Of a DNA stretch of 64,000 nucleotides, positions 649 through 5,022 are shown piece after piece. The position numbers were made by a program, and so were the translations under genes. The first letter of the stretch is position 1. Each line of letters opens with the position of its first letter. The notes beneath the pieces are model-generated. The model did no database searches. It was not told where the DNA came from and saw only the letters and a list, made by a program, of their open reading frames with translations. Source of the stretch: an uncultured Myxococcales bacterium (GTDB lineage: Bacteria; Desulfobacterota; Binatia; UBA1149; CAYXZP01); assembly GCA_964469485.1 (NCBI GenBank), contig CAYXZP010000001.1, forward strand, positions 3,660 through 67,659, in the 5' to 3' direction.

Positions 649-1104
649 TTACTGGCCGGTGAGCGCGGCCTCGGCATCGGTACCGAGAACCATCAGATAA
701 TCTCGTATCGCAAGCACGATCTTGTACTGCTGGTGGGCATCGGGGTCGGAGTAGATCGGGTTCCAGTCGTCGTCCTCGTTGAAGTTGAAGAAGTTCGGCA
801 TCTTTGTGCCGGGCTGAAGCGTCTGCGGGTCTATCATCCAGCGCACTATCCATTCGGGGCGAAGTCTGTCCTTGGCCAAGATGAGGTTGGGGGCGATGAT
901 GTCGTCCGTGAGCGGTTGTCCCGGCTCCGTGGCGTGGCAAAGCGCGCATTGGTAGGCGTCGAACATCTGCTTCCCGAGCTTGGCACTGGCCCGGAACTCC
1001 GGGTTGTCGAGGCGGAAGTAGCGCATCGAGTCCGCTGCCGCGGGTTCGGCCAAGAGACCGCCCGCCACACCGAGGGCCACTACGAGGAACAACGCTTGTT
1101 TCAC
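649..1104 (-). CDS. Small c-type cytochrome (monoheme), secreted
   Basis: CALCH heme-binding motif. A GTG at 1104 gives the start VKQALFLVVALGVAGGLLAEPAAADS, which reads as a signal peptide. An MPNFF motif is present, as seen in class I c-type cytochromes. Confidence 0.6.
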   Translation of the reverse strand: MKQALFLVVALGVAGGLLAEPAAADSMRYFRLDNPEFRASAKLGKQMFDAYQCALCHATEPGQPLTDDIIAPNLILAKDRLRPEWIVRWMIDPQTLQPGTKMPNFFNFNEDDDWNPIYSDPDAHQQYKIVLAIRDYLMVLGTDAEAALTGQ

Positions 1105-1190
1105 TATCGGGTACGCGCCTGCCGGGAGGCCGTGACCAGCAGGGGTACCAAGTCCGCGGCACGCGGGCAAGTGTGGCCGTGGGTGCTGGG

Positions 1191-1241: not shown

Positions 1242-1568
1242 ATGAACAGCGAGGACCTCGAGAAGAAGCTCTACGGGCTGGTATCCGAACTGGGCCAGCT
1301 GCTGGCCAGCGAGCGCTTGGCCGAAGCCGTGACCGAACTCATTGCCGGCGCTTCCAAGACCAAGGCCAGCCTCGACCGCAATATCGACGGCCTGCTGAGC
1401 CTGGCCAATATACCGACGCGTTCGGACTATCGCCGTATCGAGACCAAGGTCGACAGCTTGCAGGCCAGCGTGCTGAGCCTGTCGCGCAAGGTCGACCGCC
1501 TCGCCGGCGCCAAGAAGGCCAAGAAGGCCAAGAAAAAACCTAGTGGCTCGCGCTCACGCAAAGCCTAG
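1242..1568 (+). CDS. Phasin-like / PHA-granule-associated-like protein with a histone-H1-like Lys/Ala C-terminal tail
   Basis: MNSEDLEKKLYGL... coiled-coil sequence with an IPTRSDYRRIETKVDSL segment typical of the phasin/PhaF family. The tail is AKKAKKAKKKPSGSRSRKA. Confidence 0.5.
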   Translation: MNSEDLEKKLYGLVSELGQLLASERLAEAVTELIAGASKTKASLDRNIDGLLSLANIPTRSDYRRIETKVDSLQASVLSLSRKVDRLAGAKKAKKAKKKPSGSRSRKA

Positions 1569-2704
1569 GCGGCAGGCCGCTCGGGTCTGCGGCCGAGCCC
1601 CGACCACAGTAGCTCGAGCTCCGGCGGTCCGCTGACATCGCCCGCCAGTTCGTGCACCAAGCCGTAAGCCGGTCTCGGCTCCATTGATCCAGCCAGCTCG
1701 GACAGCTCGCCCAGCACAGCACTTTCGCTCGCGCGCAGGCCCAGCATTTCGGCTTCCATTAGCGCGAGCGCCTCGGTGGTTCCGGCTGGAGCCTCGCTGA
1801 GCGCGGCGGCGAGCCCCGGGCGGCGCCCGCCGTCTCCTGGCGTGACTCGGTTTACGATCAGTGCGGCGACCCTGAGGCCGGCACCGGCGAGTTCCCCGGC
1901 CAACTCGCCGGCCATGGCGGTTCCCCTGCGGTCGGGCCGGGCCACCACCACGAAAGAGCTGTCGGGGCGCCGTAGCATGCGCTCGACCTCGCCGGCGCCC
2001 TGTTCGAGCGCCTCGAGCACGCGGTCGAAACCGTCGATGAACTCAGCCACCTGGCGGCGCAGGGCCATGCCGCTCACCCGCTCTATGACGGTCAGTAGCG
2101 CCCACAGCGTCATGCGGGCCAATCGCGAACCGGCCTTGGCAATAACAAGGGCGGGCTCGGTCAGTATCCTGGTGGCGCCGCTGTCGAGCAGGGCCGTAAG
2201 ACGGGCCGGCGCCGACAAGAGGTCGGACAGGTGCGCGGCCGGCGGAGTATCGATTATGAGAAGGTCCCAGTCCTCATCCTTGTCGAGTTCGTTTATACGC
2301 TGCATGGCCACGTAGGCCTCCGAACCTCCCACGGCGCCCGCGATGGCCTTGTAGATGGGATTGTCGAGCAGGGTGGGGGCCGAGCCCGGCACTAGGGCGG
2401 TCACCATACGGTCGAGCGTGGCCTTGGTGTCGAGCTTCATGGCCACCAAGAGACCGCCGTCGGCTGCGCCTTCGCCCAGCGGGATCTCGCGGGCGAGTCC
2501 GCCGAGCTTGTCGAGCCCGAGGGTATCGGCCAGGCGCGGCGCGGGGTCTACGGTGATAACGGCCACCCGGCGCCCCGCGCGTGCGGCGGCCAGGGCGCTT
2601 GCCGCGGCCAGCGAGGTCTTGCCCACACCGCCCTCGCCGGCGAAGACCAAGAGCGAGTTGTCCTCGAGGACCTTTTCCAGCGGGTGGCCGCTGAGGCCGC
2701 TCAT
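1565..2704 (-). CDS. ArsA/Get3-family (anion-transporting ATPase-like) P-loop ATPase, paralog 2
   Basis: MSGLSGHPLEKVLEDNSLLVFAGEGGVGKTS... The deviant Walker A here has Glu in place of the signature Lys (GEGGVGKTS). The ATG at 2704-2702 overlaps the TGA of the upstream paralog (ATGA). The ORF track merges this gene into a spurious 720-aa ORF. Confidence 0.7.
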   Translation of the reverse strand: MSGLSGHPLEKVLEDNSLLVFAGEGGVGKTSLAAASALAAARAGRRVAVITVDPAPRLADTLGLDKLGGLAREIPLGEGAADGGLLVAMKLDTKATLDRMVTALVPGSAPTLLDNPIYKAIAGAVGGSEAYVAMQRINELDKDEDWDLLIIDTPPAAHLSDLLSAPARLTALLDSGATRILTEPALVIAKAGSRLARMTLWALLTVIERVSGMALRRQVAEFIDGFDRVLEALEQGAGEVERMLRRPDSSFVVVARPDRRGTAMAGELAGELAGAGLRVAALIVNRVTPGDGGRRPGLAAALSEAPAGTTEALALMEAEMLGLRASESAVLGELSELAGSMEPRPAYGLVHELAGDVSGPPELELLWSGLGRRPERPAA

Positions 2705-3456
2705 GGTCTCTCCTCCAGAAAGCGCCGGCCGAGGTCGACCGAGAGCCCTTCGCCCGAGAAGCTGAAGGGTGTCGAAAAAGGAACAGGGTGAAGCTCCGCG
2801 ACCGCCGCCAGCTGGCGGCGACGCCTGGCCAGGTGGAGCAGTGCGTCGGTGGACAGCTCGGTACGCTCGAGCCAGGCGGTCTGTTCCCGGTCGAGGCGTT
2901 CCGGATAGACGCCGTTCAGCAGTAGCCGCGGTGCTATGCCTTCGCCGGTCAGCGCGCGGCAGGTCTGGCGCGCTTCGTTCACGGACATTTCTTCTGGGCT
3001 GGTGACCACGACGACCGACATGCGTGTCTCGTCGGTCACGAAACGGGCCAGCTCGTGGGCCAAACGGCGCGCCGGCCCGACCAGAGCCAATCGCGAAAGA
3101 CGTGCCGGTGCGAGCAACATTGCCAGGGCCTGTCCGGAGGCCTGACCGTCGATGACCAAGCGGTTCCGCTCCGACCGCTGACGGAGAGCGTCCAGGCGGG
3201 CGATGTCGGCCAAGCCCGGGAGTGCCGCTGCCAGGGCCTGAAAACTGCGGCTGTTGCGCAAACGGCGGCTTACGGGGCGCACGCGCACGAGACGGTCGAG
3301 GAGGGCCGCTACCGTTTCGCGCTCGTCGAAGGAGCCGTTGATATCCAGCAGGCGTGCCGGTGCGGCGGCCTCGGCGAGCAGGGCGGCGATGGTCGTCCTG
3401 CCGACCCCGCCCTTGCCCGTCACAAACAGTACCCGCGCCCCGCTCACCGTGGCCAA
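2701..3456 (-). CDS. ArsA/Get3-family P-loop ATPase, paralog 1
   Basis: MATVSGARVLFVTGKGGVGRTTIAALL... The signature Lys is present but the P-loop Lys is replaced by Arg (GKGGVGRTT). Transcribed divergently from glpK. Confidence 0.7.
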   Translation of the reverse strand: MATVSGARVLFVTGKGGVGRTTIAALLAEAAAPARLLDINGSFDERETVAALLDRLVRVRPVSRRLRNSRSFQALAAALPGLADIARLDALRQRSERNRLVIDGQASGQALAMLLAPARLSRLALVGPARRLAHELARFVTDETRMSVVVVTSPEEMSVNEARQTCRALTGEGIAPRLLLNGVYPERLDREQTAWLERTELSTDALLHLARRRRQLAAVAELHPVPFSTPFSFSGEGLSVDLGRRFLEERP

Positions 3457-3528
3457 GACTTAGACGTGGCAGAGGCCACCGGCAAGGCCCGTTGCAATGG
3501 GTCAGGGCGGCGCTAAAACTCCGCGCCG

Positions 3529-5022
3529 ATGAAGCGTTACGTTCTGGCCATAGACCAGGGAACCACGGGTTCGACCGTGATGATATTCGATCGCAGCGGC
3601 TCGGTGGTATCACGCGCCTATTCCGAGTTCCGCCAGCACTACCCGAGGCCCGCCTGGGTCGAGCACGACGCCGAAGAGATCTGGAGCACCACGCACGGGC
3701 TGATCGACAAAGCCTGTCGCAGCGCAAAGGTGGCCAAGGACGAGCTGGCCGCCATCGGGATCACCAACCAGCGCGAGACCACTGTCATATGGGATCGCAG
3801 TAGCGGACGGCCCATCTCAAAGGCCATCGTGTGGCAGGACCGCCGTACCTCGGCGCGTTGCGATAGGCTCAAGGCGGACGGGTTGGAATCGGCGGTACGC
3901 CGCAAGACCGGCCTGATGATCGACCCTTACTTCTCGGCCAGCAAGATCGAGTGGTTGCTGGCCAACACCCGGGGTGCGGCAGCGAGGGCGGCGCGCGGCG
4001 AACTGGCCTTCGGCACCATCGATAGCTGGCTGATCTGGAAGCTCACGGGCGGTTCCTGCCATGTGACCGACTACACCAACGCCTCGCGCACCATGCTGTT
4101 CGACATCCACAAGAAGCGCTGGGACCCGGCTCTGTGCGACATTTTCTCGGTACCCGCCGAGATCCTGCCGGAGGTTCGGCCCTCCTCCGGCGTGTTCGGA
4201 GAGACGGCCCCCGGGCTTGTCGGCCGCAGTCCGCTCCCGATAAGCGGCGTGGCCGGCGACCAGCAGGCCGCGCTTTTCGGCCAGGCCTGCTTCAGGCCCG
4301 GCATGGTCAAGAACACCTACGGAACCGGCTGTTTCATACTCATGTTCACGGGAAAGACGCCCGTGCGCTCCAACAACCGGCTGGTCACCACAATGGCCTG
4401 CGATGCCGCCGGGCGTCCGGCCTATGCGCTCGAAGGCTCTATCTTCATTGCCGGTGCCGCGGTTCAGTGGCTGCGCGACGGGCTCGGCCTGATAGCCCGC
4501 GCGGCCGACAGCGAAACCGCCGCCCGCCGGGTCGACTCCACGCTGGGGACATACCTGGTGCCGGCCTTCGCCGGCCTCGGCGCCCCATACTGGGACGCGG
4601 AGGCTCGCGGAGCGGTGGTGGGCCTAACCCGCGGGGTGACGGCCGACCACATTACGCGGGCCACACTCGAGTCCTTGGCCTACCAGACCCGCGACGTCGT
4701 CGAGGCCATGATGGCCGACTGCGGCCGGCGCATACGGCTGCTCAGGGTCGACGGCGGCGCCACCACCAACGACTTCCTCATGCAGTTCCAGGCCGACATC
4801 CTCGGAGTCACGGTCGACCGGCCCGAGGTGGTCGAGACAACAGCGGCCGGGGCCGCCTTCCTGGCGGGCCTCGGCGTGGGCTTTTGGAAGAATGCCGCCG
4901 ACGTCGAGAAGGCCCGTCGCAGGGACAGGGTGTTCAAACCCGGCATGCGGCCCGGGCAACGGCGCGAGCTTTACCAGGGGTGGCTCGAAGCGGTGTCGCG
5001 CGTGAGCAGCAGTCAGGGTTGA
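3529..5022 (+). CDS. glpK: Glycerol kinase
   Basis: Full-length match to the FGGY sugar kinase glycerol kinase family (MKRYVLAIDQGTTGS..., WQDRRT, GTGCF motifs). Confidence 0.95.
   Translation: MKRYVLAIDQGTTGSTVMIFDRSGSVVSRAYSEFRQHYPRPAWVEHDAEEIWSTTHGLIDKACRSAKVAKDELAAIGITNQRETTVIWDRSSGRPISKAIVWQDRRTSARCDRLKADGLESAVRRKTGLMIDPYFSASKIEWLLANTRGAAARAARGELAFGTIDSWLIWKLTGGSCHVTDYTNASRTMLFDIHKKRWDPALCDIFSVPAEILPEVRPSSGVFGETAPGLVGRSPLPISGVAGDQQAALFGQACFRPGMVKNTYGTGCFILMFTGKTPVRSNNRLVTTMACDAAGRPAYALEGSIFIAGAAVQWLRDGLGLIARAADSETAARRVDSTLGTYLVPAFAGLGAPYWDAEARGAVVGLTRGVTADHITRATLESLAYQTRDVVEAMMADCGRRIRLLRVDGGATTNDFLMQFQADILGVTVDRPEVVETTAAGAAFLAGLGVGFWKNAADVEKARRRDRVFKPGMRPGQRRELYQGWLEAVSRVSSSQG

Follow-up and report, generated by a model that had tools for sequence, protein, structure and literature searches.

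A BagA/BagB-like pair of Get3/ArsA-fold ATPases with putatively asymmetric nucleotide sites, encoded beside glpK in an uncultured Binatia bacterium

In a 64,000-nucleotide stretch of DNA from an uncultured bacterium of the class Binatia (contig CAYXZP010000001.1 of assembly GCA_964469485.1, positions 3,660 to 67,659; hereafter the window), two overlapping genes encode distant homologues of Rv3679 and Rv3680, the BagA and BagB proteins of Mycobacterium tuberculosis (Mtb), and lie divergently to glpK, the gene for glycerol kinase. Our explanation of the locus as a whole, which we regard as likely, is that the two genes are coupled in translation and encode a BagA/BagB-type pair of ATPases of the Get3/ArsA fold, with asymmetric nucleotide sites and a glycerol-related role. 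The pair had been singled out in a sequence-only reading of the window, whose coordinates and motifs all proved correct when the open reading frames (ORFs), the gene overlap and both Walker A motifs were re-read. In Mtb, bagAB (Rv3679/80) protects the cell from the toxicity of glycerol metabolism and of nitric oxide (NO) (PMC10597346).

Identity of the two ATPases

Both genes are encoded on the minus strand. The upstream one, bagA-like, spans 2701..3456 and encodes a shortened Get3-fold ATPase subunit of the Rv3679/BagA family, 251 amino acids (aa) long when read from a TTG codon at 3456; public gene calls start it at a GTG at 3447, 9 nucleotides (nt) further in, giving 248 aa (P0001). The downstream one, bagB-like (1565..2704, 379 aa, P0052), encodes a Get3-fold subunit of the Rv3680/BagB family, and the stop codon of the first gene and the start codon of the second share an ATGA at 2701-2704 on the minus strand, read from the sequence.

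The BagB-like protein matches 6bs3_B (Rv3680) in the PDB with an E-value of 1.8e-42 and 148.7 bits, residues 15-292 aligning with 18-290, and its top NCBIfam family is BagB, at 201.8 bits and under the equivalog cut-off of 521. By these scores it is clearly an Rv3680/BagB homologue. Its switch I motif D53-P-A (2540..2548, minus strand) aligns with the DPA of Rv3680 and apparently also with that of Get3, and both this motif and the Walker B/switch II motif D152-T-P-P (2240..2251, minus strand) are invariant in two BagB alignments (A2 and A5).

Direct matches of the BagA-like protein are weak (6bs3_A at E 5.5e-4; NCBIfam BagA as the best family, with 44 bits against a cut-off of 400). The protein connects at E-values of 1e-20 to 1e-33 with typical proteins of 300-330 aa, and the profile of its homologues finds 6bs3_A (Rv3679) as its best PDB match, over the full length and at E 8.9e-49. 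An AlphaFold2 (AF2) model of the window protein is of high confidence (pLDDT 93.9, pTM 0.90) and has 6bs3_A as its top Foldseek match (TMq 0.74); the 6bs3 entry is titled 'ADP-bound bacterial Get3-like A and B in Mycobacterium tuberculosis'. Judged by profile and predicted fold, the upstream protein is a shortened and much diverged Rv3679/BagA relative, and the homology of the pair to Rv3679/Rv3680, which the sequence-only reading had offered conditionally, is borne out for both subunits. Compared with one another, the BagA and BagB families are mutually homologous (hhalign E 4.9e-39), and a hydrophobic insertion of about 55 residues is present in BagB-type proteins and not in BagA.

The window BagA is shorter at three places: ~35 aa are missing at the position of switch I, ~10 aa ahead of Walker B and ~23 aa close to the C-terminus. 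All three segments, including the ~35 residues aligned with switch I, are also missing from its closest relatives. The protein is probably a degenerate partner that still gives the trans-acting lysine described below and is predicted not to hydrolyse ATP. We considered whether bagA might be a decaying pseudogene and rejected this: the ratio of non-synonymous to synonymous substitution rates (dN/dS) against L085, a relative of 71% identity, is 0.21, which denotes purifying selection (the value for bagB is 0.17), the AF2 model is of high confidence, and four samples carry an intact ORF.

Since Pfam places both proteins in ArsA_ATPase (PF02374) and their PDB matches include ArsA chains, the pair could in principle be an arsenite/antimonite pump ATPase of the ArsA type whose halves are encoded by separate genes. 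The scores argue otherwise, with BagB reaching 148.7 bits against Rv3680 and 72.8 bits against its best ArsA match, and the NCBIfam ArsA model TIGR04291, which has a cut-off of 650, yielding 49 and 23 bits. Furthermore, BagB has no cysteine and BagA a single one, so that a three-cysteine metalloid site is impossible, and no arsR, arsD, arsB, acr3 or arsC gene lies within 10 kb. On scores, cysteine content and gene context we regard a split ArsA as effectively refuted; the same three lines favour BagAB over a grouping with arsenite-efflux ArsA halves, the outcome that the sequence-only reading had itself named as contrary to its proposal. The Get3/TRC40 family model TIGR00345 gives 70.8 and 41.9 bits, under its cut-off of 135, and neither a CXXC zinc motif nor cysteine pairs are found in the window BagA or BagB.

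Conservation of the two predicted composite nucleotide sites

ATPases with a deviant Walker A motif (NifH, MinD, Soj, Get3 and ArsA, for example) have an N-terminal signature lysine that contacts the nucleotide in the partner subunit; as this lysine acts in trans, the pair should have two composite sites. The Walker A motif of the window BagA, GKGGVGRTT (3391-3417, minus strand), keeps the signature lysine (K15) and has arginine (R20) in place of the P-loop lysine, its AGG codon at 3397-3399 being a single transition away from AAG. That of BagB, GEGGVGKTS (2612-2638, minus strand), has glutamate (E24) at the signature position and an intact P-loop lysine (K29). Read directly from the sequence, both substitutions are genuine and no artefacts of alignment, and because GKGGVGRTT is identical in contigs of four different samples (L001-L004), the arginine is not a sequencing error.

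One composite site would thus be made of the BagB P-loop lysine K29 and the BagA signature lysine K15, both invariant in every sample of homologues, and the other of BagA R20 and BagB E24, both at variable positions. We evaluated this on homologues showing the motifs, on the best 150 BagA-like proteins from an index-free search of 1.84 billion cluster representatives, and on 80 loci kept from a BagB profile scan of 185,579 species-representative genomes. The BagB P-loop lysine is present in 119/119 motif-showing homologues and in all surveyed loci, and the BagA signature lysine in 50/50 motif-showing homologues, 144/144 motif-bearing representatives and 76/76 readable loci; the only exception to the latter is L106, which came from a scan selecting for GEGGVGKT. 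Among the 119 homologues, the residue at the signature position of BagB is S (65), E (30), T (14), A (3), Q (2), N (2), D (1), P (1) or H (1), and in none of them (0/119) lysine; across all samples S, E, T, A, P, G, Q, N, D or H is found there. The glutamate form is common to the 30 closest BagB homologues of the window protein. Mtb has GAGGVGKT in BagB and GKGGTGKS in BagA, and hence, as in the window pair, a signature lysine in A and not in B.

Among the 150 unbiased representatives, arginine replaces the BagA P-loop lysine in 16 of the 144 motif-bearing proteins (~11%); these 16 fall into at least 8 groups at 50% identity, and for 11 of them the nearest neighbour is of the lysine type. Within its clade the replacement is private to the window organism, as all seven relatives with which it was compared (L085, L086, L088, L090, L091, L092 and L093) have lysine.

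A pair in which one ATP site is of the consensus type and the other degenerate would be expected to show this conservation pattern, and because both invariant lysines fall into one composite site and both variable positions into the other, the pattern supports an asymmetric heterodimer. The complementary degenerate motifs to which the sequence-only reading drew attention are therefore a true feature of the window pair, as well as a minority state, given the ~11% of arginine types and the lysine of the clade relatives. Its proposal of one competent and one crippled site likewise fits the family-wide conservation, although the loss of the BagB lysine is not special to this locus but characteristic of the whole family (0/119 homologues, and GAGGVGKT in Mtb).

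Two departures from the usual motifs were seen on the way: L005 has a BagA with GKGGVGTT, in which threonine stands at the P-loop lysine, and the above-mentioned L106 combines a BagA-like GEGGVGKT with a BagB GSGGVGKT and has no signature lysine in either subunit.

Pairing across genomes

The 80 BagB loci belong mostly to Actinomycetota, with a few from Myxococcota, Binatia, Desulfobacteraceae and metagenome-assembled genomes (MAGs) of Proteobacteria, and each of them (80/80) has a BagA-like ORF as its direct upstream neighbour on the same strand. In 52 of 79 BagAB loci from other species the two genes share an in-frame 4-nt overlap of the form [AGT]TGA; in another 13 the overlap is 1 nt (65/79 together). 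The actinobacterial loci show the neighbourhood known from Mtb, with RidA/YjgF and a metallo-β-lactamase (MBL)-fold hydrolase upstream and WhiB and a class A penicillin-binding protein downstream, and can therefore be taken as true bagAB orthologues.

In addition, the best 150 BagA-like proteins include 18 that consist of one chain (637-841 aa), in which a BagA-type motif (GK...) is followed by a BagB-type motif G[SAPG]GGVGKT (P0184, P0186, P0202, P0204, P0207, P0215, P0218, P0222, P0236, P0240, P0245, P0249, P0267, P0271, P0274, P0280, P0282 and P0284). They are either ArsA-like fusions of the pair or gene calls merged across the 4-nt overlap; as fusions, with the same order of motifs, they would lend Rosetta-stone support to a heterodimer. 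By homology to the solved Rv3679-Rv3680 complex, the window pair is most likely an obligate heterodimer.

Linkage to glpK

The divergent glycerol kinase gene (3529..5022, plus strand) scores 766 and 701 bits with two NCBIfam GlpK models and exceeds both cut-offs (498 for the 766-bit model), in agreement with the divergent glpK across a 72-bp gap that had been read from the sequence. The compact intergenic region (3457..3528) is 72 bp long when measured from the TTG start of bagA and 81 bp from the GTG start. It contains a promoter-like element in each direction: towards bagAB, on the minus strand, TTGCCG (3480-3485) and TAAGTC (3457-3462) are separated by a 17-nt spacer and end at the TTG codon, and towards glpK, on the plus strand, TTGCAA (3492-3497) and TAAAAC (3514-3519) are separated by 16 nt and end 9 nt before the ATG. 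A scan for the strict sigma-70 consensus made no call in this spacer; hexamers and spacing are kept in both directions in L085, and we consider them putative promoters, weaker in their match and backed solely by this conservation. If they are real, the leaders would be very short or absent, and the GTG start at 3447 would be favoured.

The inverted repeat GTGGC-AGAG-GCCAC (3466-3479), which falls within the spacer of the bagAB promoter-like element, had been correctly described and placed in the sequence-only reading. As an operator we rejected it, since a perfect repeat with arms of 5 bp or more and a loop of 3-8 nt arises in 35% of shuffles of the 72-bp spacer, a chance-level frequency, and since it is not conserved in L085.

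Across the clade of the window, glpK is divergent from bagAB in all 13 informative contig types, that is, in the window and the 12 others whose contigs reach far enough upstream. Their BagB identities to the window protein are 71-72% (L085-87), 50% (L088/89), 47% (L090 and the contig of P0062) and 43-45% (L091, L092 and L093); the set further includes L094, L096 and L097, and the GS-type contigs L099 and L100 at 39-41%. In 6 of the 13 types an acyltransferase gene of family PF01553 (PlsC/GPAT-type) lies between glpK and bagA, upstream of glpK and in the same orientation (L088:7980-9095(-), L090:501-1301(-), L094, L096, L099 and L100); it receives no NCBIfam assignment. Because six contig types carry it at this place, the ancestral arrangement of the clade was likely an acyltransferase-glpK operon divergent from bagAB, and the acyltransferase, missing from the window, was apparently lost at least twice. 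A gene of L090 near bagAB with a PAP2 match was considered as a lipid phosphatase and rejected, as its best score is to a PhoC-type acid phosphatase with a lipoprotein signal; it is excluded from the glycerolipid evidence.

Points against the explanation and alternative readings

Several observations weigh against the explanation given above, in its parts or as a whole. Two concern sampling: a k-mer-prefiltered set gave an inflated count of 22/50 arginine-type BagA proteins, in whose place the 16/144 above is used, and the pattern of the first 80-locus scan required the signature position of BagB to be S, E or T. Both proteins also miss the equivalog cut-offs widely (44/400 and 202/521 bits), and with scores below the naming thresholds the pair is better called BagAB homologues than functional equivalents. 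As to the sites, NCBIfam curates a family of 'KGGVGR-motif variant AAA ATPase' proteins, so that exchange of the P-loop lysine for arginine need not abolish function, and Whitaker and colleagues are said to have reported in 2020 that intact ATP-binding motifs of both Rv3679 and Rv3680 are required in Mtb, in which case the BagA site may matter more than the word 'degenerate' implies. As to glycerol, the entire 20-kb block around the pair (hisDBHA, murA, prmC, prfA, rpmE ... acpS, radical SAM, ftsZ, ftsA) is syntenic in all glpK-linked contigs, which weakens any functional inference from the adjacency, as this may be inherited rather than selected; glpK is found within 10 kb in 0/80 BagAB loci of other species (the chance expectation being ~0.4% per locus), and it is absent from beside bagAB in the more distant relatives L103 and L109.

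The points on the sites could be read as meaning that both composite sites are catalytically active, with Arg20 taking over from the P-loop lysine and the missing trans-lysine compensated, and hence with no functional asymmetry. That the arginine variant recurs, in no fewer than 8 independent groups and while under purifying selection, speaks for this, as do the curated variant family and the reported need for both motifs in Mtb. It does not account for the fact that the two varying positions share one composite site while the two positions of the other are invariant, nor for the absence of the switch I segment from the window BagA, and we consider it unlikely.

More weight attaches to a reading in which the ATPase is of BagAB type, the position of glpK is frozen synteny, and the pair is a general ATP-driven chaperone or targeting factor with no glycerol role in this organism. 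We take this as a serious possibility, if not the one we would choose. It follows naturally from a 20-kb neighbourhood kept in every glpK-linked contig and from the missing glpK in 80/80 other loci and in L103 and L109, and also from the divergent orientation of glpK and bagAB, which are not co-transcribed. It is opposed by the persistence of the linkage down to BagB identities of 39-41% (L099 and L100) and through an insertion, as in the P0062 contig a chromate transporter and two ORFs have entered between rpmE and glpK, leaving glpK-acyltransferase-bagAB intact. Moreover, it is a glycerolipid-type acyltransferase gene that has been gained or lost between glpK and bagA, and in Mtb genetics independently connects bagAB with glycerol (PMC10597346).

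The conserved functional link that the sequence-only reading expected from the glpK adjacency therefore fares differently at two depths of the neighbourhood survey: the linkage holds throughout the clade, in each of its 13 informative contig types, and it is absent from the 80 loci of other species and embedded in a syntenic block. A genuine functional link between glpK and bagAB stands, in our assessment, at roughly even odds, and the adjacency in the window lineage provides modest independent support for the glycerol connection known from Mtb genetics.

Neighbouring genes

Convergent on bagB lies a small ORF (1242..1568, plus strand) that encodes a coiled-coil protein of 108 aa with a Lys/Ala-rich tail. 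It had been labelled phasin-like, which holds for its motif and not for family membership, as its match to the phasin family PF05597 (E 0.004, 17.5 bits) falls under the gathering cut-off of 28.8 bits; matches to phasin or PhaE-type families are similarly sub-threshold in 6 of 7 orthologues (best E 0.0016). The protein has a conserved core, TKAxVDRNxDALLSMANxPSRxDY, followed by a Lys/Ala/Arg-rich tail (L085, L088, L090, L091, L093, L005 and L103). Its gene adjoins bagAB throughout the clade and in L005, and in L103 it is found on the other side, divergent upstream of bagA; as it is kept beside bagAB where glpK is absent (L103), it accompanies bagAB more faithfully than glpK does. The 79 other surveyed loci do not have it. 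A promoter-like site, TTGCCG-17-TATACT, precedes it at 1191-1219. The stop codons of bagB (minus strand) and of the small ORF (plus strand) share a CTAG palindrome at 1565-1568, with no intergenic space between the two genes. Beside the small ORF across the clade is an ORF (649-1170, minus strand) with a signal-like N-terminus and a CALCH haem-binding motif, which has weak cytochrome c/SoxX matches.

In 18 loci of Actinomycetota, the gene directly next to bagA is that of RidA/YjgF, in divergent orientation and at a median distance of 56 bp, and the MBL-fold hydrolase gene is next after it in 13 loci. Both families (clusters of L034:7935-8630(-) and L030:6125-7417(-)) are associated with the detoxification of reactive metabolites. 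In MAGs of the Solirubrobacterales/Actinomycetes type (L033, L036, L041, L045, L052 and L068), ftsZ lies about 2.5 kb upstream of bagA, and it is also near bagAB in L085-L101, so that in two distant phyla bagAB is located at the edge of a division/cell-wall cluster.

Proposed mechanism and role

In the mechanism that we propose for the asymmetric BagAB-type pair, ATP would be hydrolysed at the consensus site, made of the BagB P-loop (K29 and T30, with switch I D53 and Walker B D152) and of BagA K15 reaching across the interface. The degenerate site, made of the BagA P-loop with Arg20 and of BagB Glu24 in trans, and in which BagA contributes no switch I segment, would at most bind a nucleotide and contribute to structure or regulation. 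Opening and closing of the helical subdomains would be driven by the ATP cycle; these subdomains are asymmetric themselves, as only BagB has the hydrophobic insertion of about 55 residues. By analogy, the role of the pair is probably that of bagAB in Mtb, namely protection from the stress of glycerol catabolism, and the divergent glpK in the window lineage is consistent with this.

A more specific proposal, which we put forward as a long shot, is that bagAB, the acyltransferase-glpK operon and the always-linked phasin-like small protein form a glycerolipid or lipid-inclusion module of the clade, in which the ATPase handles an amphipathic client and glycerol 3-phosphate goes to lipid. The asymmetric Get3-like ATPase would then chaperone or target its client, for which the phasin-like protein and the PlsC-type acyltransferase are candidates, glycerol 3-phosphate from GlpK would be channelled into lipid, and on failure of the system triose phosphates and methylglyoxal would build up. 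If true, this would give a mechanistic account of the glycerol-toxicity phenotype in Mtb, with named candidate clients for BagAB.

BagAB is a system with a solved structure that is tied genetically to glycerol and NO tolerance in M. tuberculosis. Finding the same pair beside glpK in a distant phylum, and ancestrally beside an acyltransferase-glpK operon, supports the glycerol/lipid connection by a route that does not involve Mtb genetics, and the survey suggests concrete candidate partners in the conserved phasin-like small protein and the PlsC-type acyltransferase. The signature of one consensus and one degenerate site, in turn, provides a model that is open to mutagenesis of the Mtb proteins. 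The BagAB-type Get3-like ATPase itself is already known, with a solved structure and dedicated NCBIfam models, and the classification of the window pair as a BagAB homologue is unchanged. What is new is modest but useful: a member from a distant phylum whose BagA is unusually degenerate, an evolutionary signature of site asymmetry that runs through the family, and a linkage to glpK, the acyltransferase and the phasin-like gene at the level of a lineage.

Comparison with known systems

With Get3, the eukaryotic and archaeal TRC40 protein, an ATPase that targets tail-anchored proteins, the pair shares the deviant-Walker-A SIMIBI fold, a helical client-binding subdomain and, as predicted for the window proteins, a dimer with composite ATP sites, and fold matches of the window BagA model to it are at TMq 0.6-0.68. 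In Get3, however, two identical subunits, each bearing GKGGVGKT, make a symmetric dimer that has a CXXC zinc clasp, whereas the window pair consists of two different subunits, neither of which has the canonical motif. We know of no Get1/2 partners in bacteria.

ArsA of the E. coli type, a pseudo-dimer of two fused halves, resembles the pair in having two non-identical Get3-fold halves with two non-equivalent nucleotide sites, as proposed for the window pair, and some BagA-BagB relatives likewise appear as a single fused chain. The window pair differs in having neither the metalloid cysteine triad nor an ars operon context, and in its far weaker scores. A more remote analogy, from general knowledge, is to the heterodimeric ATP-binding cassette (ABC) exporters (TAP1/2, TM287/288, CFTR), where the substitutions of both subunits fall on one composite site and the other is canonical; fold and motifs are unrelated, and BagAB has no membrane domains.

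The closest system is Mtb BagA/BagB (Rv3679/Rv3680; PDB 6bs3/6bs4/6bs5; NCBIfam NF053622 and NF053621), which gives the best sequence, profile and fold matches of the window pair. The genes are in both cases adjacent, co-oriented and overlapping, A before B, and the proteins share the Get3/ArsA fold, a signature lysine in BagA and not in BagB, and an extra helical insertion in BagB. The two systems differ in sequence, with identities of ~35-40% for BagB and <20% for BagA, and in their A subunits, as Mtb BagA has 340 aa and the motif GKGGTGKS, while the window BagA has 251 aa, no switch I segment and arginine at the P-loop lysine. They also differ in neighbourhood (glpK, sometimes the acyltransferase, and the phasin-like ORF in the window lineage; RidA, the MBL hydrolase, whiB4 and ponA2 in Mtb) and in phylum (Binatota-type and Actinomycetota, respectively). 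What they again have in common is a link to glycerol, which is genetic in Mtb and positional in the lineage of the window.

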